A DNA stretch of 64,000 nt, from the NCBI GenBank assembly GCA_023247035.1, contig JAHFHG010000005.1, positions 7,515 through 71,514 of the forward strand, written 5' to 3'. This document shows positions 24,995 to 39,606 of the stretch, piece by piece (the first letter of the stretch is position 1; every line of letters starts with the position of its first letter). Under the pieces are notes generated by a model, which was given only the letters and a program-made list of their open reading frames with translations, did not search any database and had not been told where the DNA came from. This DNA comes from Candidatus Omnitrophota bacterium. GTDB lineage: Bacteria; Omnitrophota; Omnitrophia; Omnitrophales; Aquincolibacteriaceae. The translations under genes were made by a program, and so were the position numbers.

Positions 24995-26071
24995 CTACTT
25001 TTTCCCCGACACCGCGGTACGGGAAGCGCGCTCGGCAAGTTCGCGCGGATCCTGGGCCGCATCAATCATCGAGTCGTAGCTGATCATCCCGGCCTGATAC
25101 ATTTCCTTCAAATGATCGTCCAGCGCTTTCATCCCGAACCGGGTTCCTGTTTGAATTTCCGAGACCACTTGATACGTTTTTCCTTCGCGGATCAGATTGC
25201 GGATCGCGGGCGTGGCGATCATAATTTCAAACGCGCAGATGCGGCCGGAGGTATCAATGCGCGGAAGCAGGGTCTGAGAGACCACAGCGACAAGGGTTGA
25301 AGCCAGCTGGATCTTGACTTGCGCCTGCTGGCCGGACGGGAACACGTCAATAATTCTGTCCACGGTCCTGGCCGCGCCCGTGGTGTGAAGCGTGGAGAAG
25401 ACAAGATGCCCGGTCTCGGCCGCGCGGATCGCCGATTCCATCGTCGCAATGTCGCGCATTTCACCGATTAAAATGACGTCCGGGTCTTGGCGGAGCGCCT
25501 TGATCACCGCCTCGGAAAAACTGGGCACGTCCTCGCCCACTTCGCGCTGGGTGACAATGGACTTTTTGTGCGGATGCATAAATTCGATAGGATCTTCCAC
25601 CGTAATAATGTGCTTCGCGTAATTTTCATTGATGTGATTGAGCATGGTGGCAAGCGAGGTTGTCTTTCCCGATCCGGTAGGCCCGGTGACGAGAATAAGC
25701 CCGCGGGGGCGCGAGAGAAGTTCCTTAAGCTGCGCCGGAAGCCCGATCTGTTCAAATGTATAAAAACGGTTAGGGAGCTGGCGGAGGACCATCGCAAAAG
25801 TTCCCTTTTGCTTGTAGCAGGAAACGCGGAAACGCGCGTTTTCATTATACGAAAAACCAAAATCAATCCCGCCCACTTCCTCGATTTTTTTGCGCTGTTC
25901 CTCCGTGGTAATTTCCCGCGCCAGGGATTCCGTTTCCTGCGGCGTGAGCGGTTTATCGTCCATCGACACAATCGCTCCGTGAATACGCAGGGACCGCGGA
26001 CGGCCCACGCTTAAATGAATATCCGAGGCCTGTTTTTCGATCGCATCATTCAAAATCGCTTCAATGGGCAT
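24995..26071 (-). CDS. pilT: Type IV pilus retraction ATPase
   Basis: ASDIHL, GPTGSGKTT, EDPIE, LRQDPD, AAETGHLVFSTLHT, AIRNLIRE signature. Confidence 0.93.
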   Translation of the reverse strand: MPIEAILNDAIEKQASDIHLSVGRPRSLRIHGAIVSMDDKPLTPQETESLAREITTEEQRKKIEEVGGIDFGFSYNENARFRVSCYKQKGTFAMVLRQLPNRFYTFEQIGLPAQLKELLSRPRGLILVTGPTGSGKTTSLATMLNHINENYAKHIITVEDPIEFMHPHKKSIVTQREVGEDVPSFSEAVIKALRQDPDVILIGEMRDIATMESAIRAAETGHLVFSTLHTTGAARTVDRIIDVFPSGQQAQVKIQLASTLVAVVSQTLLPRIDTSGRICAFEIMIATPAIRNLIREGKTYQVVSEIQTGTRFGMKALDDHLKEMYQAGMISYDSMIDAAQDPRELAERASRTAVSGKK

Positions 26072-26125: not shown

Positions 26126-26252
26126 TTAAGGCAAAGCCGAAAGAAAAATTAAAAAGGCAAAAGGATAAAAAATTAAAGGCGGCAAATCCGCTTGGAATAT
26201 TTCGATTTCAACTTCCAGGTTGCGCTTTTTCCTTTTCGCTTTGCCTTTTTAA
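26126..26252. repeat. Purine/pyrimidine imperfect inverted repeat (long hairpin)
   Basis: TAAGGCAAAGCCGAAAGAAAAA pairs with TTTTTCCTTTTCGCTTTGCCTT; AAAGGC units repeated. Confidence 0.55.
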
Positions 26253-26767
26253 GGATTGATCCGGAAAATAGAAACGGCCTTCAAGATCAATGCAATGACA
26301 GCCGCTAGGAAAAATAAAAACGCCGGGCCTTCCCCGTTGCGCGGAAGCGGCGTCAAGGCCAAACGGCTCCTCACGCCTCGCAGCAAAATTTGAAAAAGCG
26401 AGGCCGCCGCGGCGAGCAACGCGGAAAAATAAACACAATCCCAAAAGCTCCGGCTTCTTTCCGCAGCCAAAAAGGAAAATCCCGCGGCCGTGATATAGAA
26501 AGCCCAAGATTTTTTTTGCGTTCGCTGAAGCTCATAACCGAGAGGCAGGAGAAGCAGGATCAAGAATTCCCCGTTTCGGATTTTCTCCAAAGGCAGGACG
26601 GAAAGAATCCAGCGGCAAAGAACGGCCGCCAGCGCGCTGGCGGCAAAAATTTCGACGCCTTCTTTGATAATATGGAAAAAGTTTTTTAAAGAAATTTCTT
26701 CCCGTTTTTCCTTCTCCAAAGACATCAGCAGCCCGAGGCTGACCGCGGCAAAAAAGAGGCCGTTCAC
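26249..26767 (-). CDS. Degenerate RnfA/RsxA-like membrane protein
   Basis: C-terminal LRGVRSRLALTPLPRNGEGPAFLFFLAAVIAL resembles RnfA GIRERL...P..F.G.PI..I.A.LM.L; last gene of rnf order; GTGA overlap with upstream gene. Confidence 0.65.
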   Translation of the reverse strand: MNGLFFAAVSLGLLMSLEKEKREEISLKNFFHIIKEGVEIFAASALAAVLCRWILSVLPLEKIRNGEFLILLLLPLGYELQRTQKKSWAFYITAAGFSFLAAERSRSFWDCVYFSALLAAAASLFQILLRGVRSRLALTPLPRNGEGPAFLFFLAAVIALILKAVSIFRINP

Positions 26768-27285
26768 TTTACGATTTCCTTTCCCGGCTGGTTTTGCCAC
26801 AGCCAGGCCGCAAACGCAATCAGAAATAAGACGCCGGCAGGTTGATCAAAAAAAAGAGTGCCTGCGTTCCTGAAAATTTCTCGGCTGACTCCAAGGTAAA
26901 TCAAAATCGCCGCAAAACCGATCCCCCTCGGCACCGCAGAGCCCGGGCTTGCGATCCAAGAATCCGGAGCGCTGAGTTTCAATTCCTTGATAAAATAAAA
27001 GGAGAGGAGCAACAGAAGGCTCAAAGCGCAAAAAGGGCTAAGGCCCTCGCCGGCGGTATACGTGAGAGCCGCTTCTGTCCACGCCGCAATCCAAAGGACG
27101 ATTGAGATTCCCAGCCCTTTTTTAGGAAACAGAGGCCGGCTTACTTTGAAAAAAAATATCGTGAGCCAAAAAATTGATACGACAACCCCTGAGATTTTCA
27201 AGGCCGCAGAAAAAGAATCGGCTTTATCTAAAAGGGGGAGGGCGGCTAAAACTATATTTAAAAATGCCCGTTCACTGCTCTTCAT
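26764..27285 (-). CDS. Degenerate RnfE/RsxE-like membrane protein
   Basis: GIGFAAILIYLGVSREIF...QPAGVLF resembles RnfE GLGF..VLG..REILG...PPGAF; LAALPLL in place of LGLCPLL. Confidence 0.7.
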   Translation of the reverse strand: MKSSERAFLNIVLAALPLLDKADSFSAALKISGVVVSIFWLTIFFFKVSRPLFPKKGLGISIVLWIAAWTEAALTYTAGEGLSPFCALSLLLLLSFYFIKELKLSAPDSWIASPGSAVPRGIGFAAILIYLGVSREIFRNAGTLFFDQPAGVLFLIAFAAWLWQNQPGKEIVK

Positions 27286-27601
27286 AAGAAAGGCCGGGAG
27301 AATGTTCTTCCGACGCGGCTTGAAAATACCTCAGAAATTTTCGACTGACGGATGGATCGAGAAAAGATTCTTTATTCTTAACTTGAGTTCCGGGCGGCTC
27401 TTTTTGAAAAGCCGGCCCGTGTTTCGCGCGGGCTTCCAGACCGCTCGGGAATCGGAGCTCCCCGCCTTGTTTTAAAAATCGAACGAGATAAACGAGGCCG
27501 CCTAAGGCCGCAAGAAAAAGAATAAAAAATAAGCGGCGGAACATTTCGATGAAAAATTCCTTCGGCGGGAAAGTGAAAAAATGCGGCGGGCGCGTTTTCA
27601 T
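27272..27601 (-). CDS. Small single-TM protein at the rnfG position
   Basis: ATGA overlap with rnfD stop, 14-nt overlap with rnfE start; TM LFFILFLAALGGLVYLV; no FMN motif. Confidence 0.55.
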   Translation of the reverse strand: MKTRPPHFFTFPPKEFFIEMFRRLFFILFLAALGGLVYLVRFLKQGGELRFPSGLEARAKHGPAFQKEPPGTQVKNKESFLDPSVSRKFLRYFQAASEEHSPGLSYEEQ

Positions 27602-28506
27602 GGGTTTTGAATCGAAGCCCGGGCGCGCTTCGGGCGAACCCATTCGTCAATCCACGGGGTTAAGGCATTCATGAAAAGGACGGCAAAAATAATCCCGCCG
27701 GAGGGCGATCCCCGGCGCATAAAAACCGTGCAAACGGCCGCCCCCAGCGCAAAAAGCCAGTTTCCTTTTTGAGTCGACGGCGTCGTGACGGGATCTGTGA
27801 TGAAAAAAAAGGCGGCGAAAAAAGCGCCGCCCCACAAAAGATTCTTCCAGGGATCCAAGCCCGCCGCGCGAGAAAACAAAAAGAGGGCCCCTAAAAAAAT
27901 GGCGGGGACCCTCCAATCGATATATTTTTTCCAGATCAGCGCCAACCCTCCGGCTAAAAGCGCGGCCGCGCTCGTTTCACCGATCATCCCGGCGTCGTGG
28001 CCCAAAAAAAGACCGGGCGCCGGCAATCCCCCGCCGTCAAGGCTGAGCGGATGATTTGTCAAAATTCCGGTAAGCGGCTCTGGAGTCCGGCTCATCCCTT
28101 CCGGGAAAATGGCCCACAAAAAACCGGCGCCCAGAAGCGACGGGTGAAACGGATTTGCGCCCAAGCCTCCGAAAATTTCCTTCCCGAATAAAACCGTCAC
28201 GAAGCCGCCAAGAATGACTCTCCAAAAGGGAATGCCGGCCGGCATCAGCATTGAAAAAAGAAGGGCGGATAAAACTGTAAACCCGTTATAAAATGCCGGC
28301 TTTTTCCCAAACAGACGCGCGCTTAGGAATTCCGTAACCAGCCCCGTCAAAACCGCGGTGAAGACAATCCTTGCGGCATCCCAGCGGAACCAAAAAAAAG
28401 CGCTCGCAAGCGATGGAATAAGAGCCGCAACCGTAATCCAGAATCGCTGAGGCACGGAATCAAACGCTTTGATATGAGGCGGAAAAGTTGTGCGGTAAGG
28501 GGTCAT
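27598..28506 (-). CDS. rnfD: RnfD/RsxD family membrane subunit (divergent)
   Basis: PPHI, GKEIFGGLGANPFHP, GMIGETS, FFITDPVTTP, FAVLFMNALTPWID. Confidence 0.88.
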   Translation of the reverse strand: MTPYRTTFPPHIKAFDSVPQRFWITVAALIPSLASAFFWFRWDAARIVFTAVLTGLVTEFLSARLFGKKPAFYNGFTVLSALLFSMLMPAGIPFWRVILGGFVTVLFGKEIFGGLGANPFHPSLLGAGFLWAIFPEGMSRTPEPLTGILTNHPLSLDGGGLPAPGLFLGHDAGMIGETSAAALLAGGLALIWKKYIDWRVPAIFLGALFLFSRAAGLDPWKNLLWGGAFFAAFFFITDPVTTPSTQKGNWLFALGAAVCTVFMRRGSPSGGIIFAVLFMNALTPWIDEWVRPKRARASIQNP

Positions 28507-28611
28507 TGGAATGCCGGCAAAGCGTCTGTCTTATGTAACTTGAGTTGTGCAAATTTTGTTTTTCTTTCCGTCATTGTAAGAATGAAAAGGGTTATCTTTG
28601 ATGAAAGACCC

Positions 28612-29907
28612 TTAGGATTTTTTGGCCGTCCCGCCCAACTCGTTTTGAACAATCTTCTCAAAATTTTCGTACGGCTGAGCCCCGGAAACAGGATTGCCAT
28701 TGATAAAAAACGCCGGCGTTCCTCTGACCCCGGCAGCCTCGCCCGCCGCGATATCCTTTTTAACCGAATCCTTGTATCTCCCTTTGGCGAGGCATTCCTC
28801 GAATTTTTTTCTCTTCATCCCGGCCTCGTCCGCCAGACGGCTCAAGACGGCGTCGCCTTCGGCCAGGGCCGCCTGATTTTCAAAAAGCTTGTCGTGATAT
28901 TCCCAGAATTTTCCTTGTTCGGCCGCGCACTGAGACGCCTCGTGAGTCCGCTGGGACCCCTGATGAAAACTCAAAGGAAAATGCCGCCAAATTCTGCGGA
29001 CTTTTTTAGGATAATTTTCCAGCAGTTTATCGAGCGTCGGGCCTACCCTTTTACAAAAAGGGCAGTGGAAATCACTGAACTCGACGAGCGTAACCGGCGC
29101 GGATTGCGGGCCCTTCGAAGGTTTCCCCTCAAGATCACTGAAGAAAACCGGTTTCTTCGGCTCCGGGGAAACCTGCCGCGGCGCAGCCCTTGAAGGAGCC
29201 GCGGGCTGATTTTGATTTCCCCTCTTGGGATTCAAAATACTCTCCATAAGCTGCTCAAATTGCTCCGGCACGAACGTGCCCGAGCTCCGGTATTCATTGG
29301 CGACCTTAATCACAAAAGTGGGCGTTCCGAAAATATTATCTTCCTTGGCCCGCCGGATTTCTTCCTGAATAGCCTTCCGGTATTTTCCGCTTTTCAGGCA
29401 TTCTTGAAAGCGGTTCGGCTCGACGCCTGCGCCTTGGGCAATACGCGCAAGATCCAATTCCTTCGGAGGTTCTGGGAGATCAAAAACAGCGTCGTGAAAC
29501 GGCCAAAATTTTCCTTGCTCATAAGCGCACGCCGAGGCTTCGTGAGTGAAGAACGCGCCGGAGCCGGGAGAAGAGCCCGCATTGGGGAAATGGCGGAAAA
29601 TCATACGGACTGTCGTGGGATACTGCGTCATTATTTTTTTCACGCTCGCAGCCGCCAACCGGCTGTAAGGGCAATGAAAGTCCGCATATTCGATAAGGGT
29701 TACCGGGGCTTTATCGACATACCGGTAAGGCGCGGCCAGCTGGGCTGAGTTATCCGATAGAACAGCTTTCTCCTCGGCCTTGCTAAAAAGGCATTTTGAA
29801 CCTAAGCGCGGGATCGAAACGCCGGCGGCCTTGATCAGCAGGATCAAGAGCATTGAAAGAACCGCTCCTGACATAAGGCCTAAAAAGAAAAGTTTATTTT
29901 TCTCCAT
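28612..29907 (-). CDS. Membrane-anchored tandem DsbA/thioredoxin-fold protein
   Basis: N-terminal TM; two domains DFHCPYS...FRHFP...GTPTF and DFHCPFC...WRHFP...GTPAF; start MEKNK overlaps rnfC stop. Confidence 0.9.
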   Translation of the reverse strand: MEKNKLFFLGLMSGAVLSMLLILLIKAAGVSIPRLGSKCLFSKAEEKAVLSDNSAQLAAPYRYVDKAPVTLIEYADFHCPYSRLAAASVKKIMTQYPTTVRMIFRHFPNAGSSPGSGAFFTHEASACAYEQGKFWPFHDAVFDLPEPPKELDLARIAQGAGVEPNRFQECLKSGKYRKAIQEEIRRAKEDNIFGTPTFVIKVANEYRSSGTFVPEQFEQLMESILNPKRGNQNQPAAPSRAAPRQVSPEPKKPVFFSDLEGKPSKGPQSAPVTLVEFSDFHCPFCKRVGPTLDKLLENYPKKVRRIWRHFPLSFHQGSQRTHEASQCAAEQGKFWEYHDKLFENQAALAEGDAVLSRLADEAGMKRKKFEECLAKGRYKDSVKKDIAAGEAAGVRGTPAFFINGNPVSGAQPYENFEKIVQNELGGTAKKS

Positions 29908-31255
29908 AAGAGGAAGTAACGGCTGTTTCAACATTTGTTTTAGAATTTTGCGTTTCAAATTGCGCAGGCTCGGGATCCGGCTTGGAAATGCGCGAAGAAG
30001 CATAACGCAAAAGTTCCAGCATCGGGCGCTTCGAGGGGCACACGTAAGAGCAGTTTCCGCATTCGATGCAGCGCTCGACGCCGTAATCGCGGGCCGTTTC
30101 GAAAAGATCCCGTTCCGCGGCCAGCGTGATCATCACGGGAGAAATTTCAACCGGGCAATGGGCCACGCATTCCCCGCACCGGATACACGGTTCGACTCGC
30201 CCGGGCTTGGCAATTTCCGGAGGAAGCCCCAGGACCGCCGAGGTCGAAGCGATGACCGGCACGGCAAGATGTTCCTGCGCCATTCCCCTCATCGCCCCGC
30301 CCATAATGATTTTCTCTGGCCGGCGAAGCAAACCCCGCGCGCTTTTAATCAAGAATTCAAAATCCGCTCCGATGCGCGCCCAAACATTCTGTGGTTCCAC
30401 GATACATTCTCCGCCCACCGTCACGACCCTTTCATAAAAAGGCTTCTGAAGCGCGACCGCTTCGTAAGCCGCAAACGCGGCGGCCGGTTCAAAGACAGCG
30501 ATCGAATCTTCTGTTTCCTTGGAGCGAAATTGTTCAATGAGCAAAGAGGGCTCGTCTTGAGGAAATAGGGACGGAAAGATCCGGACCTCAAAATTTTTCC
30601 ACTTGAGGAAATAAATCTTGCTCTTCAGGATCTCCGCGGACTCCATCTTATCCGTTTCGGTCGCAATCATGACCCGTTCCGCCTCCGCCGCGCGCCGCAA
30701 AATCTCCGCGCCCTTCAAAAGTTCCAAAGGATGCGCCATCATTAACGCCTGGGCCGCGCTCACGTAAGGATCGGATTCGCAGGCGTTGATCACCATCGTG
30801 CGGATTCCCCGATGTTTCAAGATTTTTACGTGAAGGGGCATATTTTCGCGCTTGAAATCCGTGAGCCCCGCGTCGCGAAAAAGATTCAAATAATCTTCCG
30901 CGGAAAAAATCTCCCAGCCTTTTCTTTCAACGCCGATTTCGGCAAGCCGGCTGTCGCGCGAATCGGAAGTAATCTCAACACCGGAAGCAATGCCTTTTAA
31001 AGGATGCGGGAAAAATCCGAGGCCCGTCACTTCTCCCGCCACGCTGGAATGAATCGCGAGAGATTCGCCGCCGGAAGGAAGCGCGATCGTTTCTCCGACT
31101 TTCACGCGCGCGCCGAGGGCGACGCAGGGAACCGCCGGAGGCCCTGAAAAATCATCGTAAGGGATCCTGACTTTTGCCGGTGGAAACGGGCGGCGGATCT
31201 TGCAGGAAAGCAGGCTCGATTCTTTTTTGGATTTAAGAAGGATTCCCGGTGACAT
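29894..31255 (-). CDS. rnfC: RnfC/RsxC family subunit (divergent)
   Basis: IHSSVAGEV, INACESDPY, ERVVTVGG, two [4Fe-4S] motifs CIRCGECVAHCP and CIECGNCSYVCPS. Confidence 0.88.
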   Translation of the reverse strand: MSPGILLKSKKESSLLSCKIRRPFPPAKVRIPYDDFSGPPAVPCVALGARVKVGETIALPSGGESLAIHSSVAGEVTGLGFFPHPLKGIASGVEITSDSRDSRLAEIGVERKGWEIFSAEDYLNLFRDAGLTDFKRENMPLHVKILKHRGIRTMVINACESDPYVSAAQALMMAHPLELLKGAEILRRAAEAERVMIATETDKMESAEILKSKIYFLKWKNFEVRIFPSLFPQDEPSLLIEQFRSKETEDSIAVFEPAAAFAAYEAVALQKPFYERVVTVGGECIVEPQNVWARIGADFEFLIKSARGLLRRPEKIIMGGAMRGMAQEHLAVPVIASTSAVLGLPPEIAKPGRVEPCIRCGECVAHCPVEISPVMITLAAERDLFETARDYGVERCIECGNCSYVCPSKRPMLELLRYASSRISKPDPEPAQFETQNSKTNVETAVTSSYGEK

Positions 31256-31399: not shown

Positions 31400-32224
31400 T
31401 CAGTTTTGAATCTTCAACCCGTCGTTTAATTTTCCTTGGCGATACCCTTCCGGATCAATCTCAACGGATTCAAACCCGAGCTGCTTCAATTTTGAGGAAA
31501 TTTTTTCAGTGAGCGCCGGATCCGAAATGAGACGGGCCAATTCCTCTTTTCCTAATTCCACTTTCGCATCATTTCCAAAATGCCGGAGCCGGACGATCCG
31601 GAATCCGCACGATTTTAAAAAAGCCTCGCCTAAATCAACTTGCCGGAGTTTGGCCGGCGTAATTTGCTCGCCGTAAGGAAAACGGCTTGAGAGGCAGGCG
31701 GCGGCGGGCTTATTCCAAGTCGGAAGCCCCAGTCCGCGGGAAATTTCCCGGATCTCGCTTTTGATAAGGCCCGCCTCCACAAGCGGGCTTTTAATCTGAT
31801 GCTCCGCCGCCGCGACCAGCCCGGGACGCCAATCGCCGAGGTCGTCTACGTTCACTCCATTGGCAATCGTTTTGATCTTCCACCGGCCGGCAAGATTTGT
31901 AAGCTGAGTATAAAGCTCCGTTTTGCAAAAGTAGCAGCGGTTGGCGGGATTGGCGGCGTAATTCGGATTTTCAATCTCCCGCGTTTCGATCCAGGAATGG
32001 TCAATGTCAAACTGATCCTTCAAGGATTCCACTTCTTTGAGTTCGGCCTGCGGCAGGGATTCGCTCTTTGCGGTCACGGCCTTTATCCGTTCACGTCCGA
32101 GGACGTCCCGCGCCACCTTCGCCACCAGCGCGGAATCGCAGCCCCCGGAGAAAGCAATGATCACGCTTTCATAGGAAGCCAGAATCTTTTTAAGGCTCTC
32201 GTATTTCTCAGGCAAAGGAATCAA
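31400..32224 (-). CDS. larE: LarE-like ATP-dependent sulfur transferase (PP-loop)
   Basis: AFSGGCDS, NPANRCYFCK, DDLGDWRPG, ACLSSRFPYG, GYRQGKLN; TTG start after GGAGG. Confidence 0.88.
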   Translation of the reverse strand: MIPLPEKYESLKKILASYESVIIAFSGGCDSALVAKVARDVLGRERIKAVTAKSESLPQAELKEVESLKDQFDIDHSWIETREIENPNYAANPANRCYFCKTELYTQLTNLAGRWKIKTIANGVNVDDLGDWRPGLVAAAEHQIKSPLVEAGLIKSEIREISRGLGLPTWNKPAAACLSSRFPYGEQITPAKLRQVDLGEAFLKSCGFRIVRLRHFGNDAKVELGKEELARLISDPALTEKISSKLKQLGFESVEIDPEGYRQGKLNDGLKIQN

Positions 32225-33305
32225 TCCAGCCTCCTCCCAAAACGCGCGGGCCGTCGTAGAAAACCGCGGCCTGGCCCGGGGTGATGGCATCTTGCGGCTC
32301 GTCGAAAGTAACTCTTACAGACTTATAATCGCTTCCGACTTCCAGCGCTGCGGGAGCCTTTTTGTGCTGGGAACGGATTTTCACCTGAGCGCGGAAATGC
32401 AGCCTCTCGCCCGGATTTAAGAACCAGTTGACCTTTCCCACTTCACAGGTACGATTGAAGACCTCCTCCTTGGCGCCGACCACAATTTCGTTTTTTTCAG
32501 GATCCGTATCGATCACGTAAAGCCGCTCCGAGTGGGCGACTCCCAATCCTCTTCGCTGCCCTCTTGTATAATGAAAAAATCCCGAATGTTCGCCTAAGAT
32601 TTTTCCGTCTTTTGTGCGGATTGCGCCTCGAGATTGAGCCTGAGCAGCCTCTGGTTTTTCGCGTTTCAAAAACGTCCCGTAATCATTGCTCGGGATAAAA
32701 CAAATTTCCTGGGAATCGGGCTTGTCCGCGACGCAAAGATTCCTATTTTTGGCCTCGGCTCGGATCTCAGCCTTCGTGTAGCGGCCCAGCGGAAGCGTAA
32801 GATGTTTTAAAACATCGCTGTCCAGAGGAAACAAAACATAAGACTGGTCTTTGGAGCTGTCCAGGCCTTCTGAAAGAAAAAAAGCTTCGTTTGGAGCGTC
32901 GTAATCCAGACGGGCGTAATGGCCGGTGGCGATAAAATCGTAGCCAAGCTGGCGCGCGCGGGAAAGAAACAGACGGAATTTAATGTGCTCATTGCAGGCA
33001 ATGCAGGGATTCGGCGTGCGGCCTTTGAGGTATTCGGCGGTAAAATAATCCACGACGTATTGCTTGAACTCTTTTTCGAAATTAAAAACCCAATAACGAA
33101 TGCCTAAAGTATCCGCCACCTCGCGCGCGTCTTCAACTCCCGTAAGCCCGCAGCACGTTTTGGTATTACGGTCCGCGCACGTCTCCGAGGCCCAGGTGCG
33201 GATCGTAGCTCCGGCCACCTCGTGGCCTTCCTCTTTCAACAAGGCCGCCGCCACCGAGCTGTCCACTCCGCCGCTCATGGCCACAAGGATTTTTTTTCTG
33301 TCCAT
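32208..33305 (-). CDS. mnmA: tRNA-specific 2-thiouridylase
   Basis: AMSGGVDSS, TPNPCIACN, ATGHY, KDQSY, DSQEICF, GQRRG, TPGQAAVFY. Confidence 0.98.
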   Translation of the reverse strand: MDRKKILVAMSGGVDSSVAAALLKEEGHEVAGATIRTWASETCADRNTKTCCGLTGVEDAREVADTLGIRYWVFNFEKEFKQYVVDYFTAEYLKGRTPNPCIACNEHIKFRLFLSRARQLGYDFIATGHYARLDYDAPNEAFFLSEGLDSSKDQSYVLFPLDSDVLKHLTLPLGRYTKAEIRAEAKNRNLCVADKPDSQEICFIPSNDYGTFLKREKPEAAQAQSRGAIRTKDGKILGEHSGFFHYTRGQRRGLGVAHSERLYVIDTDPEKNEIVVGAKEEVFNRTCEVGKVNWFLNPGERLHFRAQVKIRSQHKKAPAALEVGSDYKSVRVTFDEPQDAITPGQAAVFYDGPRVLGGGWIDSFA

Positions 33306-33334
33306 AAAATTTCCCGGAAATTATTTGAAAACGA

Positions 33335-34075
<741 letters not shown>

Positions 34076-34134
34076 TTAAAGGAACGTGCAATCCGCCGAG
34101 GATCGTGATGGATCGTCATTGTGATTTGAACGGC

Positions 34135-35523
34135 TCACTGATCTTCCGCTTCTTCCCGAATGGATTCATAGGTGACATCAAGCAGAAAATTTAATTCCTC
34201 ATGAGAAATCGTTAAAGGCGGCATCAAAACAATCACCGGGCCCAGCGGGCGCAGGATCACACCTTTTTTTTTGGCGCGCCGGGTCACGCGAAGGCCTATC
34301 TTTTCGCGCCAGGGGAAAGGCTCCTTTGTCTTCGCGTCCTTCACAAGCTCAATGCCGATCATAAATCCTGCCTGCCGAATATCGCCGACAATCGGAATGT
34401 TATAAAAATCCGCAAGCCTTCGCTGCGCAAGACTGATTTTGAGTTCCAGTTTTTCCAGGACCCTGTTTTTTCCAAAAAGCTTCAAGCTCGCAAGCGCGGC
34501 GCTGCACGCTAAGGGATTGGCCGTAAATGTATGGCCGTGGAAAAAAGTTTTGAATTCTTGGTACTCTCCCAGGAAAGCGCTGTAAATTTTTTCGGTTGCA
34601 AGGGTCGCAGCAAGGGGAAGGTACCCGCCGGATAACCCCTTTGCGACGGCCATAAGATCAGGGGCCGCATTTTCCTGCCGGCTTGCAAACAAGCTCCCCG
34701 TTCTCCCAAAACCAGTTGCCACCTCGTCGGCAATAAGCAGCACATTATACTTTCTGGTCAGTTCCCTTGCACGCGAAATGTAGCCGGAGGGCTGATCAAT
34801 CATTCCCGCCGCGCCCTGCATCAGAGGCTCCAAGACAAGCGCCGCGATTTCTTGATGATGCCGGGCGAGCACCTTCTCAAGCCCGCTCAAGGCCTCGTCT
34901 CGGACCCTGTCGGCCTCACTTCCTCCCGGCCACCGGTACCGGTAAGGAGAAGGGGCGCTGAAGGTCTCAAAAAGAAGCGGCCTGTAAATTTCGTGGAAAA
35001 GATCAATCCCTCCGACACTTACGGATCCCAGGGTATCGCCGTGATAAGCGTTGACCAGCTTGACAAATTTGGTCTTGGCGGGTTTGCCGGTCTGGCGCCA
35101 GTATTGATACGCCATCTTCAAAGCAATTTCAACGGCCTCGGAACCGGAGTCGGAATAAAAAACCCGCGCCAATCCCGCCGGGGCGATACGGATTAATGCT
35201 TCGGCAAGCAGGATCGCGGGGCCATTGGAAAGCCCAAGGAAGGTGGAATGAGAAATGGCGTTAAGTTGTTTTTTGACGGCCGCGTCGATTTCTTTGACGC
35301 GGTGGCCGTGGACATTGCACCAAAGGGAGGAAACGCCGTCCAAATAACGTTTGCCGTCCATATCCTCAAGCCAGACGCCGCTGCCGCTGCGAATAATCGT
35401 GATTTTTTCCTTCTCCCAATCTTTCATTTGGGTAAAAGGATGCCACACGTATTTTTTGTCTTTGGCTTCTAAGGATCGCTTTTTATAAGCCTTTTTTTTT
35501 ACGGCCGTCTTCACCGATTGCAT
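34135..35523 (-). CDS. bioA: 7,8-diaminopelargonate aminotransferase
   Basis: WHPFTQM, SSLWCNVHGH, SGSEAVEIALKMA, YHGDT, DEVATGFGRTG, AKGLSGG. Confidence 0.97.
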   Translation of the reverse strand: MQSVKTAVKKKAYKKRSLEAKDKKYVWHPFTQMKDWEKEKITIIRSGSGVWLEDMDGKRYLDGVSSLWCNVHGHRVKEIDAAVKKQLNAISHSTFLGLSNGPAILLAEALIRIAPAGLARVFYSDSGSEAVEIALKMAYQYWRQTGKPAKTKFVKLVNAYHGDTLGSVSVGGIDLFHEIYRPLLFETFSAPSPYRYRWPGGSEADRVRDEALSGLEKVLARHHQEIAALVLEPLMQGAAGMIDQPSGYISRARELTRKYNVLLIADEVATGFGRTGSLFASRQENAAPDLMAVAKGLSGGYLPLAATLATEKIYSAFLGEYQEFKTFFHGHTFTANPLACSAALASLKLFGKNRVLEKLELKISLAQRRLADFYNIPIVGDIRQAGFMIGIELVKDAKTKEPFPWREKIGLRVTRRAKKKGVILRPLGPVIVLMPPLTISHEELNFLLDVTYESIREEAEDQ

Positions 35524-35600
35524 TTCTTGCAGCTTTTCGCCTTCCGCCCTGACGAGCGGGCCGGGGACAAAGGCTTTTAAATCAGAACAACGATTGATTT

Positions 35601-36359
35601 TTAAACGAGCGGCGGGCCCTCTTCGCAGTGCAGGAGCCGGGTCTTCTTCCTCAGCGTCCTAAGGACAATGTAAACAAAAAAGCCGATACTCAAAAAGAAA
35701 ATCCAAACCGGCCGGAATTCAAGCTCGTGGTTCCCCAATAATTCAGCAAAGAATTTAATGGCGACGAACCCGGCGATGATGCCGAAGAAAGTTGAATATT
35801 CGCGTTTCAAGACCATACGCCACGAAAATCGGGCCGCCGGCCTGCGCCACTTCCGCAGATTGGGGAAAAACGCGGGCGTTGCGTCGGCCCATTTTTGGAA
35901 AGTTTCTCCAAATTCCTTTTCGAGGAATGCCTCCTCCGCAAAAATAATCCGCTCATAAAAAAGGCAGAAGAGGAGCGAAAACATAACGACGAACCACCAC
36001 ACCTGAACAAACAAGGCAAATCCGAGGGTGATCATGAAATTTCCAAGGTAAAGCGGATGCCGCATCATCGAGTAAGGGCCTTGGGTATTCAAAAATTTGG
36101 CAAGTTGGCCCTGGGTGTTCCGGCCCGATGTACCTTCCGGAACCCAGCCCACCGTGAGCATCCTCAGCCCAAGGCCGCTGAAGGAAATAAGAATACAAAA
36201 GATTTCCCATACCGTCTGCACTCCGTCCCCAAAATGCCGGCCGATATATTCGGAGTCCCTTAAAGCAGCGAGCAGCAAAGGAAGGATCAGCAGCGGGAAA
36301 TAACTGCGGCGCCTAAAAAGCCAGTTGCCTCTTTTTTCGAAATCGCGGCTGAGATTCAT
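35601..36359 (-). CDS. ICMT/PEMT-family membrane methyltransferase, LmtA-like
   Basis: FEKRGNWLFRRRSYFP, GTSGRNT, GPYSMMRHPLYLGN, YERIIFAEEAFL. Confidence 0.8.
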   Translation of the reverse strand: MNLSRDFEKRGNWLFRRRSYFPLLILPLLLAALRDSEYIGRHFGDGVQTVWEIFCILISFSGLGLRMLTVGWVPEGTSGRNTQGQLAKFLNTQGPYSMMRHPLYLGNFMITLGFALFVQVWWFVVMFSLLFCLFYERIIFAEEAFLEKEFGETFQKWADATPAFFPNLRKWRRPAARFSWRMVLKREYSTFFGIIAGFVAIKFFAELLGNHELEFRPVWIFFLSIGFFVYIVLRTLRKKTRLLHCEEGPPLV

Positions 36360-36364
36360 GGAGA

Positions 36365-37135
36365 TTAAAAACTTAAAACCGCAGGGCTGTCCTGGCCGCC
36401 GGCGATACAGCAAATCCGTTTCTTGCCCTGGCGTTTGGCCTGGTCCAGCGCCGCTTGAGCGCGAGAAGAAAACTCCTTCCTCTCCTCGCCGGTTTGATAA
36501 GAAGTGATGCCTGCGCTAAAACCGATATCCATTTTCTCCTCGGCCTGAATGAGAAGGCGGGAAAGAAGTTTTTCAGAACGGACAAGGTCGGTGTGAGGAA
36601 GCGCAATGCAAAAAGTGTCGTTTTCAACGCGGGTTAGAATGTCCGAGGAGCGGGTATGCCCCTGCAGAAAATGGGAGAATGTTCTTAATACCTCGTCGCC
36701 CCGAGCCCGGCCAAACTGCTCATTGCAGGAAGTAAAATGATCCAAATCCAAAAAACACAGCGCGATTGGAAAATGATAACGGCCGGCCCTCCGCAATTCA
36801 TTTTCAAGGGCCTGTTCAAATCCGGCGTGGTTCATCAATCCGGTGAGATCATCGCACAAAAGCCTTCTCTCAAGCTCAAGCCACCGCTTGCGGAAAAGCA
36901 AGGCTGAAACGCCCAAAAGAAGATTCAAAACACAAAGGCCGCCTACCCCGGCCCACAATCCTGCTTCCCTCTTGTTTTGAACAAGCCCTGCCCAATTTCC
37001 TTTAGTAAGATAAAACAAAATGCCTAACGCCAATACGCTGCAAAACCCCGTGGATTTAAGGAAAATTTCTTCGAGCCTTCTGCAGGAGTCCCGCTGACTG
37101 GTAAGATGATGATTTGCTAAGCGGTCAAATTTCAA
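36365..37135 (-). CDS. Membrane-anchored degenerate GGDEF-domain protein
   Basis: 2 TM; DDLTGLMN, DLDHF, GDEVL, SAGI, AKRQGK; active-site motif reads VENDTF. Confidence 0.85.
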   Translation of the reverse strand: MKFDRLANHHLTSQRDSCRRLEEIFLKSTGFCSVLALGILFYLTKGNWAGLVQNKREAGLWAGVGGLCVLNLLLGVSALLFRKRWLELERRLLCDDLTGLMNHAGFEQALENELRRAGRYHFPIALCFLDLDHFTSCNEQFGRARGDEVLRTFSHFLQGHTRSSDILTRVENDTFCIALPHTDLVRSEKLLSRLLIQAEEKMDIGFSAGITSYQTGEERKEFSSRAQAALDQAKRQGKKRICCIAGGQDSPAVLSF

Positions 37136-37201
37136 TCGATGGGTCCTTTTTTCAAGAAACGCGTGTCGGTGTTGCGCGTCATTATCGCACAGCCGGGATC
37201 T

Positions 37202-38386
37202 TTAGGCTATGGGAGATTGTTTGCTTTTCCCCAGGCAAGAAACCAACGCCCCAAGAAAGCGTTCGATATCTTCTTCCGTGTGATCCGCCCTCAATGTCAC
37301 GCGAAGCCTCGCCTTTCCCTTCGGGACCGAAGGCGGCCTGATGGCCGGCGCCAAAAAACCCTGATCCCTGAGACGATCAGAGACCGCAAGGGCGTCTTCT
37401 TCGGAACCTATAAGAATGGGAAAAATGGGAGAAGAAATCTTTTCCTGCAAAAGGCCTGCCTCAAAAAGCCCCCGCGTCATTTTTTGGACATTTCGCGCGA
37501 GATCAGCCCGCAGCCCCGGTTCCTCTCGAATAAGGCGCAAGGCCTGCGAAGCCGCTGCGCACACCGCAGGCGGAAGGGCCGTTGCAAAAATAAACGGCCG
37601 GGCGTGATTGATCAGGTATTCCCAGATGGTTTTAGAAGTTGCCGCAAAGCCGCCGAGACACCCCAGCGACTTCGACAAAGTCCCGACAATGACGTCGACC
37701 TCATTTTCGAGTCCGGCCTCTTCAACCGCTCCCCGTCCCCCCGCGCCGAGAACTCCCGTGCCGTGCGCGTCGTCGAGAATAAGCAGGCACTCATATTTTT
37801 TTTTCAGCCTCGCAAGCTCGTTCAGATCCGCGCAGTCTCCGTCCATACTGAACACGGTATCGGAAACTAAAACCCGCCGCCGGTAATTTTTGCTTTTCTC
37901 AAGGATTTCGAAACAGCGTCTGTAATTTTTATGGGGGAAAACGCGGATCGCGGCCCCGGACAGCCTGGCCCCGTCAATCAGCGAGGCGTGGCATAATTTA
38001 TCCATCACGATAACGTCTTTTTCATTCGCAAGCGCGCTTACGACTCCAATGTTGGCAAGATAGCCTGCGGTAAAAAGAAGGGCCTTTTCCTTTTTTTTGA
38101 AGTCTGCGATTTCCTTTTCAAGCCGGGTGTGAAGATCCGTGGTGCCGGAAATCAGACGAGCGGCTCCGGCCCCTACGCCGTAAAGTTCCGCGGCCTGTTT
38201 GAAGGCGCGGATCAGGCGCGGATGATGGGCCAATCCCAAATAATCGTTGCCGCAAAAAAGCAAAATTTCCCGGCCGTCCAGGAACGCATATTTTCCTTTG
38301 GGATCGGAAAGGAAACGCAAGCTGCGGTGCGAATGGCTGGCGCGAAGAAGGGCAAGCTCCTCCTCAAAGACCTGAAGAACGCTCAT
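37202..38386 (-). CDS. bioF: 8-amino-7-oxononanoate synthase
   Basis: NDYLGL, HASLIDG, VFSMDGD, DDAHG, GTLSKSLG, IRPPSVP. Confidence 0.95.
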   Translation of the reverse strand: MSVLQVFEEELALLRASHSHRSLRFLSDPKGKYAFLDGREILLFCGNDYLGLAHHPRLIRAFKQAAELYGVGAGAARLISGTTDLHTRLEKEIADFKKKEKALLFTAGYLANIGVVSALANEKDVIVMDKLCHASLIDGARLSGAAIRVFPHKNYRRCFEILEKSKNYRRRVLVSDTVFSMDGDCADLNELARLKKKYECLLILDDAHGTGVLGAGGRGAVEEAGLENEVDVIVGTLSKSLGCLGGFAATSKTIWEYLINHARPFIFATALPPAVCAAASQALRLIREEPGLRADLARNVQKMTRGLFEAGLLQEKISSPIFPILIGSEEDALAVSDRLRDQGFLAPAIRPPSVPKGKARLRVTLRADHTEEDIERFLGALVSCLGKSKQSPIA

Positions 38387-39606
38387 CGCTTTGTCTGGGC
38401 AAGGGCAATGGCGGCGATATGCCCTCCAAATCCCATTGAAAGAGAGACCGCGGTTTCGACCTGGGCCTTGCGTGCCTTTAAGGGCGTGTAATCCAGATCG
38501 CAGACAGGGTCACGTTCTTCGAGACCGGCCGTGGGAGGGATAAAGCCTTCATTCATTGCGAGGAGACACGCGATAATCTCAACCGCGCCCGAGGCGCCAA
38601 GCATATGTCCGGTCATTGATTTGGTTGAGCTCATCGGAATGCGACAGGCCTCGCGCCCGAACGCTTTTTTAAGCTGATCCGTTTCGTAAATGTCGCCGCT
38701 CAACGTTCCTGTGCCGTGCAGATTGATGTAATCGATCGTTCGCGGATCAAGCCGCGTTTTCTTCATGAGGTCACGCAGCGTTCTTTCCAGCGTATTGTTC
38801 TCCTTCTTAAAATGGAGAGGATCGGACGAGTCGATTCCGTAAGCGCCGCCTAAAATTTCTCCATAAATCCGGGCGTTTCTGGCTTTTGCGCTTTCCATCG
38901 TTTCAAGAAACACGATCCCCGCTCCCTCGCCGATTAAAAAACCGCTCCTCCGCTTGTCAAAAGGCCTCATTGAATCCTTGGCCAGGACTTTCATCTTCTT
39001 ATATCCTGCCAAAAGGAGCGGTACGATCGAGGCGTCGCTGGCGCCGGCGATACAATAATCAACCACGCCGTCGGAAACCATCCGCGCTCCCTCAAGAACC
39101 GCAACCGTGCCTGTGGCGCAGGCCGCAACGTAGCACTTGGCCGGGCCCTGGATCTTCCAGCGCCGGGCAATCCACTGGGCCGCAAAGTTCGGAACCGTAT
39201 TGGAATAAATCCGAGCGCCAAGAATAGCGCTCGGGTGTTTGGCGAACCGCTCCTTAAACCGGTCCAGCGTATGCATTCCGCCCTTGCTTGAACTGACTGA
39301 GATTCCGATCCGGTAACGGTCTATGGTTTCGGGATCAAAATAGGCGTTTTGAATCGCTTCGCCCGCCGCGGCGACGGCGTATTGAATAAAAGGATCCAAA
39401 AAATGGGCCTTGTGGGCGCGCGCCTCGAAATTTTTTACCTCAAAGGCCTTCGTGACGGGAAAATTAGAACAATCAAAACAGGTAATGCGTCCTTCCCCGG
39501 AAATCCCGCCGGAAAGATTTTTACAAAACGCGGGAACCCCGATGCCGATCGGGGAGACAACGCCCATTCCCGTCACCACAACCCGCCTTGGCAAATTAAT
39601 CCTCAA
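38383..39606 (-). CDS. FabF-like beta-ketoacyl-ACP synthase
   Basis: VVVTGMGVVSPIG, AACATG, RPFD, GEGAG, HGTGT, KSMTGHMLGASG, GFGG. Confidence 0.9.
   Translation of the reverse strand: MRINLPRRVVVTGMGVVSPIGIGVPAFCKNLSGGISGEGRITCFDCSNFPVTKAFEVKNFEARAHKAHFLDPFIQYAVAAAGEAIQNAYFDPETIDRYRIGISVSSSKGGMHTLDRFKERFAKHPSAILGARIYSNTVPNFAAQWIARRWKIQGPAKCYVAACATGTVAVLEGARMVSDGVVDYCIAGASDASIVPLLLAGYKKMKVLAKDSMRPFDKRRSGFLIGEGAGIVFLETMESAKARNARIYGEILGGAYGIDSSDPLHFKKENNTLERTLRDLMKKTRLDPRTIDYINLHGTGTLSGDIYETDQLKKAFGREACRIPMSSTKSMTGHMLGASGAVEIIACLLAMNEGFIPPTAGLEERDPVCDLDYTPLKARKAQVETAVSLSMGFGGHIAAIALAQTKR

Follow-up and report, generated by a model that had tools for sequence, protein, structure and literature searches.

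The 64,000-nucleotide stretch of Candidatus Omnitrophota DNA analysed here (the window, from genome G000, which is 92.8% complete) carries on its minus strand an Rnf-like operon from which most canonical cofactor motifs are missing; we refer to this operon and its counterparts in related genomes as stripped. It comprises rnfC' (29894..31255, 453 amino acids (aa)), a DsbA-like gene (28612..29934), rnfD' (27598..28506, 302 aa), a 109-aa open reading frame (ORF) with a single transmembrane (TM) segment in the rnfG slot (27272..27601), rnfE' (26764..27285, 173 aa), and rnfA' (26249..26767, 172 aa). All six frames are open and most are coupled through overlaps of 4-14 bases, in agreement with the intact, overlapping gene order described in an earlier note on this DNA, which was made from the letters alone. 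The rnfA' of that note is likewise real, with its start shifted from 26800 to a more likely GTG at 26767 (a 4-base overlap with the rnfE' stop, giving 172 aa). RnfC' scores 275 bits on TIGR01945, above the cut-off of 245.95, RnfD' scores 251 bits on PF03116 and RnfE' only 18 bits on PF02508; searches of Pfam and NCBIfam matched neither RnfA' nor the 109-aa ORF. As detailed below, the stripped cluster is real, order-wide, and under selection, and a plausible mechanism can be offered for it.

Cofactor sites lost and kept

Alignment of RnfC' to the solved Rnf chains (7ZC6, 9ERI, and 8AHX) reveals that AGIVGMGGATFP is replaced by AGLTDFKRENMP, that the flavin loop GIVGMGGATFP reads GLTDFKRENMP, and that ECEP and YPQGAEKQL read ESDP and FPQDEPSLL, respectively; the former Gly-rich flavin mononucleotide (FMN) loop occupies residues 130-142 (GLTDFKRENMPLH, 30830..30868). 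Across 95 loci (67 stripped and 28 canonical RnfC), G[LM]GGxxFP was found in 2/67 stripped, both of family f7, versus 28/28 canonical sequences, ECEP in 1/67 versus 28/28, and QGxEKQL in 0/67 versus 17/28. All eight [4Fe-4S] cluster cysteines, which lie in two CxxCxxCxxxCP ferredoxin motifs at residues 357-406 (30038..30187), are present in 67/67 stripped sequences. A model of RnfC' (predicted local distance difference test (pLDDT) 93, predicted template modelling score (pTM) 0.90) superposes on chain C of 9ERI with a template modelling (TM) score of 0.88 and a root-mean-square deviation of 2.1 Å. The former flavin pocket has gained a cysteine, C159 (60/67 stripped versus 1/28 canonical). A C159/C284 dithiol was considered and rejected, as residue 284 is Cys in 14/28 canonical sequences too and only C159 is new.

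Comparison of mean pairwise identity between 43 stripped and 14 canonical RnfC, after thinning of genera, reveals falls of 0.35-0.54 at RnfC' residues 133-144 (-0.54, the largest loss) and 235-258. Near the pocket N157, E160, E162-P163-Y164, YP, and GGPMxG are still kept, and these residues, together with the loop retained in f7, could suit an RnfC' that still oxidises NADH via an unrecognised flavin site. We regard this as exceedingly improbable, given that conservation in the other 65 sequences is lowest at residues 133-144 and 235-258 and that no stripped RnfC retains QGxEKQL.

In RnfD', the FMN carrier T156 (Acetobacterium woodii numbering) is replaced by His152 in the motif ILTNHPL. The FMN-threonine motif occurs in 0/62 stripped versus 25/27 canonical RnfD, and the linker that bears it has a median length of 30 aa in stripped versus 64 aa in canonical proteins. 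In A. woodii, according to a preprint (bioRxiv 10.1101/2024.06.21.599731), T156 carries FMN, N123 and D249 are the riboflavin ligands, and an N123A variant is inactive. The Asp of this pair is kept in RnfD' as D238 and the equivalent of N123 is His121, a change on which the earlier note is silent; an H/N/Q121 plus D/E238 pair occurs in 51/62 RnfD'. Residues P10, G113, G114, G116, P122, and P243 are kept in 92-100%, and H11 and D238 in 81-82%, of RnfD' sequences, and these residues mark the riboflavin pocket and the RnfC-docking loops. In genus g15, RnfD' has eroded to 14-27 bits with RnfC' intact, and the riboflavin-pocket Asp is present even in the most eroded of these proteins.

RnfE' and RnfA' are true homologues of RnfE and RnfA. 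Profiles built from relatives match by hhalign at 94% and 98%, respectively, with cross-comparisons at most 6%, the A' profile matches RnfA in the PDB with an E-value of 2e-13, and a model of A' (pLDDT 91) finds NqrE and RnfA as its best matches (Z 11.6 and 11.5 over ~160 residues; next unrelated match 7.4). Foldseek alone gave no match for RnfA' at E<=0.001, the top seven rows nonetheless being RnfA or NqrE. The Fe-S cysteines are gone from both proteins: GxCP was found in 0/47 E' and 0/44 A' versus 26/26 and 19/26 canonical sequences, and NC in 2/47 E' and 0/44 A' versus 26/26 of each.

In the rnfG slot a TM-bearing ORF was found in 34/46 loci, of which 26 are stubs of 33-49 aa and eight are 109-240 aa long. 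Six of these ORFs match the canonical RnfG profile at E<0.005, and none of the 34 retains [ST]GA[TS] ([ST]GAT is present in 21/27 canonical RnfG). The 109-aa ORF of the window does not match the RnfG profile, but its position, its coupling through ATGA, and the gradation of remnants among relatives make an RnfG membrane anchor the best reading. The earlier note was right to describe a single-TM protein without the FMN motif here; we take it for an anchor remnant rather than an unrelated gene. The losses listed there for RnfC (flavin motif gone, both cluster motifs kept), for RnfD (FMN-threonine motif replaced by ILTNHPL), and for RnfA and RnfE (GxCP and NC cysteines) are borne out by the alignments and by the counts in relatives, and ligands at shifted positions in RnfC or in RnfD, E, and A, an alternative that the note itself had raised, are ruled out by alignment and by the RnfC' superposition.

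Both E and A are cleanly absent from 6/53 loci for which downstream flank is available, and in one locus (L048) C' and D' form a single 680-aa fusion lying 44 bases from pilT; RnfC' and RnfD' are therefore the minimal core. No longer fused form was found among proteins of 794-2265 aa, which is weak evidence. At another locus (L042:6460-7788), RnfD' is extended at its C-terminus, the extension closing with a tail that resembles RnfA', and pilT follows directly. RnfE and RnfA form the Na+ path of A. woodii in the preprint cited above, and the earlier note had suggested an ion conduit as one possible new role. A passive ion or solute conduit made of the cofactor-free membrane subunits could draw on the urea/ammonium-transporter-like topology of RnfD, on the large deletion of its occluding periplasmic linker, and on the kept Asp238. 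Against this, E' and A' are absent from the 6/53 loci and have lost their conserved residues, and constraint is weakest on D', E', and A', the soluble C' being the invariant part; a conduit is accordingly disfavoured and, in our view, very improbable.

The missing partners were searched for elsewhere in the genome, as had been proposed. rnfB is absent from the cluster, and G000 yielded no RnfB over cut-off, no FMN_bind domain, no ApbE, and no second rnfC or rnfD. A second canonical rnf operon is thus rejected for G000, and genomes of the order each have one RnfC match. Gene content was compared among 48 stripped genomes, 17 canonical ones, and 3 that lack RnfC. The N-terminal domain of RnfB (PF04060, used because TIGR01944 is too insensitive for these RnfB, finding 10/17 canonical) was found in 2/48 stripped versus 17/17 canonical genomes, and ApbE in 10/48 versus 17/17. 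One stripped genome (G060) has an RnfB-N-terminal-like gene away from its rnf locus (C57:225-503, a 158-aa frame), and one canonical operon (L125, genome G099) carries a minimal RnfB of 92 aa.

Distribution, synteny, and selection

One RnfC homologue was found in 71/76 genomes of the order (genomes at least 80% complete). Of the five without it, two have loci running off contig ends, one also lacks polA and bioD (unassembled), one has a cluster deletion (G033, 92% complete, in which mnmA lies 0.5 kb from polA), and one is a further case. In a sample of 161 genomes of the phylum, full-length RnfC scores are bimodal: genome G029, family f11, and the other classes score 465-555 bits, and the remainder of the order 232-392 bits. 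The syntenic order of the locus is bioD-mnmA-(larE)-C-D-G-E-A-pilT-polA, and G029 carries a complete canonical rnfCDGEAB at the same site (L056). A quick RnfC tree of 60 sequences places the stripped set on one side of a branch with a Shimodaira-Hasegawa-like approximate likelihood ratio test (SH-aLRT) support of 99, with G029 next and then f11, which fits a single origin by descent and vertical inheritance of the stripped operon. An independent MnmA tree is unrooted, its outgroups having been lost to a motif filter, and the order cannot be rooted from MnmA. Named records with this RnfC' are Candidatus Omnitrophota, including Ca. Taenariivivens baikalensis (L150), a member of class Omnitrophia, order Omnitrophales (PMC10066038); the window probably belongs to that order as well. 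The earlier note had inferred a coordinated loss without gene breakage: breakage is indeed not observed, but the loss of cofactor motifs was staged rather than simultaneous, because family f7 keeps the RnfC flavin loop and what is left of RnfG varies in length between 240 and 33 aa.

A coupling system that differs between stripped and canonical genomes is complex I. NuoD-type matches of at least 330 bits (a line set after the scores had been seen) occur in 45/48 stripped genomes, a 46th being a contig-edge fragment, versus 0/17 canonical genomes; matches of 230-263 bits in nine canonical genomes are read as group-4 hydrogenase subunits. NuoF over cut-off was found in 29/48 versus 0/17. In PMC10066038, Rnf is assigned to acetogenic classes and respiration to Omnitrophia, with which the coincidence of stripping and complex I is consistent. 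G000 has two complex I operons, one encoding nuoABCDIHJKLMN without nuoEFG (C49:26185-36938) and one encoding nuoABCD, a fused nuoEF, nuoG, and nuoH (C21:4907-12380), and the same pair occurs in many relatives. RnfC' as the missing input module of the 11-subunit complex I finds no support: genera g15 and g44 have only the long NuoD type (5/5 genomes) yet keep RnfC'.

Downstream of the cluster in the window lies pilT (24995..26071, minus strand), a conserved neighbour that also adjoins canonical rnf in L056 and thus reflects ancestral synteny. Given that pilT follows the cluster in most loci, that both are gone from the G033 locus, and that type IV pili are common in Omnitrophia (PMC10066038), the cluster might act as a redox sensor gating this type IV pilus retraction ATPase. 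We consider such a role very unlikely: pilT flanks canonical rnf as well (L056, L122), four stripped loci lack pilT at the site (L037, L038, L045, L051), and G033 keeps PilT elsewhere without RnfC'. Upstream lies a block that we take, from motifs with no family match behind the labels, to be bioD-mnmA-larE (31400..34057, minus strand), an ancestral arrangement common to canonical loci L056 and L103. It is overlapped by what is presumably a biotin block running in the same direction (33335-39606; bioD, bioA, bioF-like, and fabF-like, labels likewise from motifs).

The DsbA-like protein has an N-terminal hydrophobic anchor and two thioredoxin domains (CPYS and CPFC). Only some members of family f1 have its gene at the locus, and elsewhere the same slot is occupied by other genes; it is a later, patchy insertion and a passenger outside the operon core. 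The C-D junction is an insertion site in several loci (L061, L064, L092-L094, L033), where the inserted DNA encodes DsbA-like proteins of 249-964 aa or an amidohydrolase (L033), or amounts to 7-9 kb of other sequence. More DsbA-like paralogues occur in G000 (C56:4134-5894 and C3:13695-14180), one with three domains, and VKOR was not found there. DsbA as an electron client was rejected on the grounds that its presence at the locus is confined to some members of one family, that D', E', and A' have no conserved Cys, and that VKOR occurs in 1/5 genomes (DsbB was not searched for). Many canonical loci, and some stripped ones, have a small thioredoxin gene after the rnf genes (L056, L049, L060, L062, L100, L102, L104-L106).

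Outside the Omnitrophota, 9/20 loci (L189-L192, L196, L202, L203, L205, and L207, seven of them named spirochaetes), from a set picked via an ESEP-type pattern and therefore biased, have an RnfC without the flavin loop (GVV[DE]TExPG-type). These loci have both cluster motifs, RnfB in 7/9, weak E and A, no RnfG match, and no SKIYF motif, and the nearest Atlas clusters are likewise Spirochaetota and Thermodesulfobacteriota; the spirochaete form looks like independent stripping. Three Bacillota loci (L193, L195, L197; Oscillospiraceae/Eubacteriales) have an altered RnfC Gly-rich loop, and L193 keeps a full D-G-E-A-B with motifs.

Ratios of nonsynonymous to synonymous substitution rates (dN/dS) were computed by NG86 for pairs with dS<2.5; dS is near saturation, pairs are not independent, and the genus of the window has a single genome. 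In the 14-genome genus g12, median dN/dS was 0.13 for C (77/91 pairs), 0.16 for D (76), 0.11 for E (57), and 0.21 for A (65), with PilT at 0.055 and PolA at 0.074 for reference. Canonical Rnf subunits gave 0.03-0.18 and stripped genera up to 0.41. The stripped cluster is under purifying but relaxed selection. The dN/dS check that the earlier note had proposed thus shows an operon kept by selection, all genera tested giving values of 0.11-0.41. A reading as slow neutral decay, in which the operon has no use, would account for the relaxed constraint, the piecemeal loss of G, E, and A, and the whole loss in G033; it is scarcely credible in view of these ratios, of frames that have stayed open at 33-52% amino-acid identity across the order, and of the invariant new residues described below.

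A gained surface and a proposed function

The largest rise in conservation, by 0.49 in mean pairwise identity, is at RnfC' residues 208-219, and residues 175-192 also rise; the windows neighbouring 208-219 belong to the lowest tenth of conservation among canonical sequences. E208, S212, and K213 are found in 43/43, 42/43, and 43/43 stripped sequences, respectively, and in 3/3 canonical RnfC of the same class. E-x3-[ST]K-x-[YFR] is present in 66/67 stripped versus 3/28 canonical sequences, all three from that class, and the full SK[IVL][YF]FLxW in 50/67 versus 0/28. In the RnfC' model the motif E-x3-S-K...YFLKW forms the end of helix 201-217 (residues 205-219, ESAEILKSKIYFLKW, 30599..30643), a likely partner-binding surface, and by helical periodicity and geometry E208, Y215, and W219 would point outward. 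The E-x3-S-K core appears to go back to a time when Rnf in this class was still canonical, and a second, partner-binding role thus probably predated the pump role and outlived it after complex I took over coupling.

The stripped cluster is predicted not to pump ions and not to be a functional Rnf, though it is Rnf-derived. The route ferredoxin-B-AE-G-D-C-NAD+ is cut at five points, with RnfB, the flavin motif of G, the cysteines of A and E, the FMN-threonine of D, and the flavin loop of C all missing, and pumping is therefore not expected; the lost motifs and the lost RnfB support the earlier note's view that this is not a normal ferredoxin:NAD+ oxidoreductase. Of the three roles suggested in that note, a redox sensor or electron dock and a scaffold are still candidates. 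Tentatively, we favour a non-pumping, membrane-tethered redox dock with two [4Fe-4S] clusters for a predicted cytoplasmic partner. Selection is one-sided, keeping the eight C cysteines and, in D, the N-terminal PH loop, the GGxG loop, and the Asp (the cytoplasmic, RnfC-docking, and riboflavin side), with the periplasmic FMN linker of RnfD' dropped. RnfC' would still bear two clusters and be tethered to the membrane by RnfD', riboflavin probably still being bound in most lineages, and E', A', and the G anchor may serve as accessory packing. Helix 201-219, together with helix 176-189, may bind the partner, with which the dock is predicted to hold and exchange single electrons.

A broader history, possible but short of likely, is that a respiratory pump was dismantled in stages after a switch to complex I and left behind a new kind of membrane Fe-S dock for signalling or electron transfer, that the partner helix was gained while RnfC was still a pump subunit and this moonlighting role survived the loss of the chemistry, that the two clusters today determine or signal how reduced the partner is, and, given the spirochaetes, that exit from Rnf has occurred repeatedly.

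Several points weigh against the dock. The link between stripping and complex I is one evolutionary event, not 48, and as such a match in timing rather than a statistical test; the 330-bit line was drawn post hoc, and a 92%-complete genome (G033) has lost the cluster. The riboflavin pair is incomplete in 11/62 RnfD' with RnfC' cysteines invariant, such that an electron path through D is not universal, and the residue at which N123A inactivates the A. woodii complex is His121 in the RnfD' of the window. Constraint is relaxed relative to canonical subunits, with D, E, and A at 0.33-0.41 in g15, g42, and g44 (dS 1-2). The motif at residues 205-219 could represent internal repacking rather than surface, the C'-D' fusion is known from one genome and could be an assembly slip, and the clusters may serve only the folding of the RnfD'-docking domain.

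The last of these points leads to a non-redox scaffold, in which RnfC' is kept for its new surface only, its clusters being structural and D', E', A', and the G stub serving as an anchor. No catalytic flavin site survives, the new helix motif matches the cysteines in invariance, a peptide of 33-49 aa still represents the G anchor in 26/46 loci, D' falls to 14-27 bits in g15 with C' intact, and NqrA offers a precedent of a cofactor-free RnfC with a presumed structural role (PMC12174285). We nevertheless judge a scaffold rather unlikely: NqrA dropped its clusters and RnfC' never did (67/67), and the riboflavin-pocket Asp survives in the most eroded D' of g15. As NqrA stays bound without clusters, docking alone needs none, and their perfect retention argues for a redox role.

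Alternatively, the cluster could be a non-pumping ferredoxin:quinone relay, with reduced ferredoxin in the emptied flavin cleft and electrons passing from cluster to cluster to riboflavin and on to a membrane quinone, as from NqrB riboflavin to ubiquinone. What is retained corresponds exactly to the Fe-S/Fe-S/riboflavin stretch of the chain (PMC9588780), and the lineage has complex I, 2-oxoacid:ferredoxin oxidoreductase (5/5 genomes), riboflavin synthesis (5/5), and free ferredoxins. However, in NqrB two N-terminal helices that RnfD lacks form the quinone site (PMC12174285), and RnfD' is not extended in this way; in addition, 11/62 RnfD' have an incomplete riboflavin pair, and G000 already encodes an 11-subunit complex I without NuoEFG, all of which makes a relay distinctly unlikely.

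Comparison with known systems

No description of the stripped form was found in the literature searched, subscription papers being outside its scope. In supplement 4 of PMC10066038, 10/18 mentions of "Rnf" all concern Gorgyraia or Velamenicoccia, and Omnitrophia could figure among the other eight or in the module table; "rnf" occurs 0 times in the available text of bioRxiv 10.64898/2026.06.07.730766, supplements aside. RnfC' passes the NCBIfam RnfC cut-off, as do most stripped copies, and genome models would therefore credit these widespread ultra-small bacteria with a ferredoxin:NAD+ pump that is predicted to be absent.

The closest system is Rnf itself (RnfABCDGE; 7ZC6 from C. tetanomorphum, 9ERI from A. 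woodii, and 8AHX from A. vinelandii), with which the cluster shares orthologous C, D, G-anchor, E, and A in the order C-D-G-E-A, the RnfC fold (TM-score 0.88), both RnfC cluster motifs, the riboflavin-pocket Asp, and the chromosomal site of the canonical operon of a sister family (L056). It differs in the absence of RnfB, of the C FMN loop, of the FMN-threonine in D or G, of the A/E cysteines, and mostly of ApbE, and in having a new conserved C helix surface and dispensable E and A. E. coli RsxABCDGE (PMC12174285) is likewise an Rnf homologue, used in a complex-I-respiring cell for redox signalling to a cytoplasmic Fe-S protein (SoxR reduction), but it keeps all six subunits and their cofactor motifs. 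The two-subunit Nqr/Rnf-like complexes described in PMC10979944 also have an RnfD-like subunit without the flavinylated threonine; for electron export, however, they retain an RnfG-like subunit that is flavinylated, together with an NAD-binding domain present as a fusion, whereas stripped Rnf has lost the G flavin domain and keeps an RnfC-type Fe-S subunit. The cluster is not such an exporter, RnfD' matching PF03116 only and G000 having no FMN_bind match, nor is it a Na+-NQR, as it has no flavinylation motifs or D/E-type cysteines and C' keeps its clusters (NqrF was not searched for).

NqrA of Na+-NQR is, according to PMC9588780 and PMC12174285, an RnfC descendant that lost its flavin and is bound to the membrane via an RnfD homologue. 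Its structural match to RnfC' is weaker (TM-score 0.68), and RnfC' scores far higher on RnfC than on NqrA. NqrA lost both clusters in a complex that keeps every membrane cofactor; in stripped Rnf the reverse is observed. The canonical sister family, the loop-keeping family, the graded G remnants (240-33 aa), and the C-D fusion together provide a staged record of the dismantling of a bioenergetic machine, and point to a non-catalytic RnfC function, a question left open for NqrA, with E208, S212, K213, Y215, W219, and C159 as candidate residues. Stripped Rnf is, in this respect, the mirror image of the origin of NqrA.

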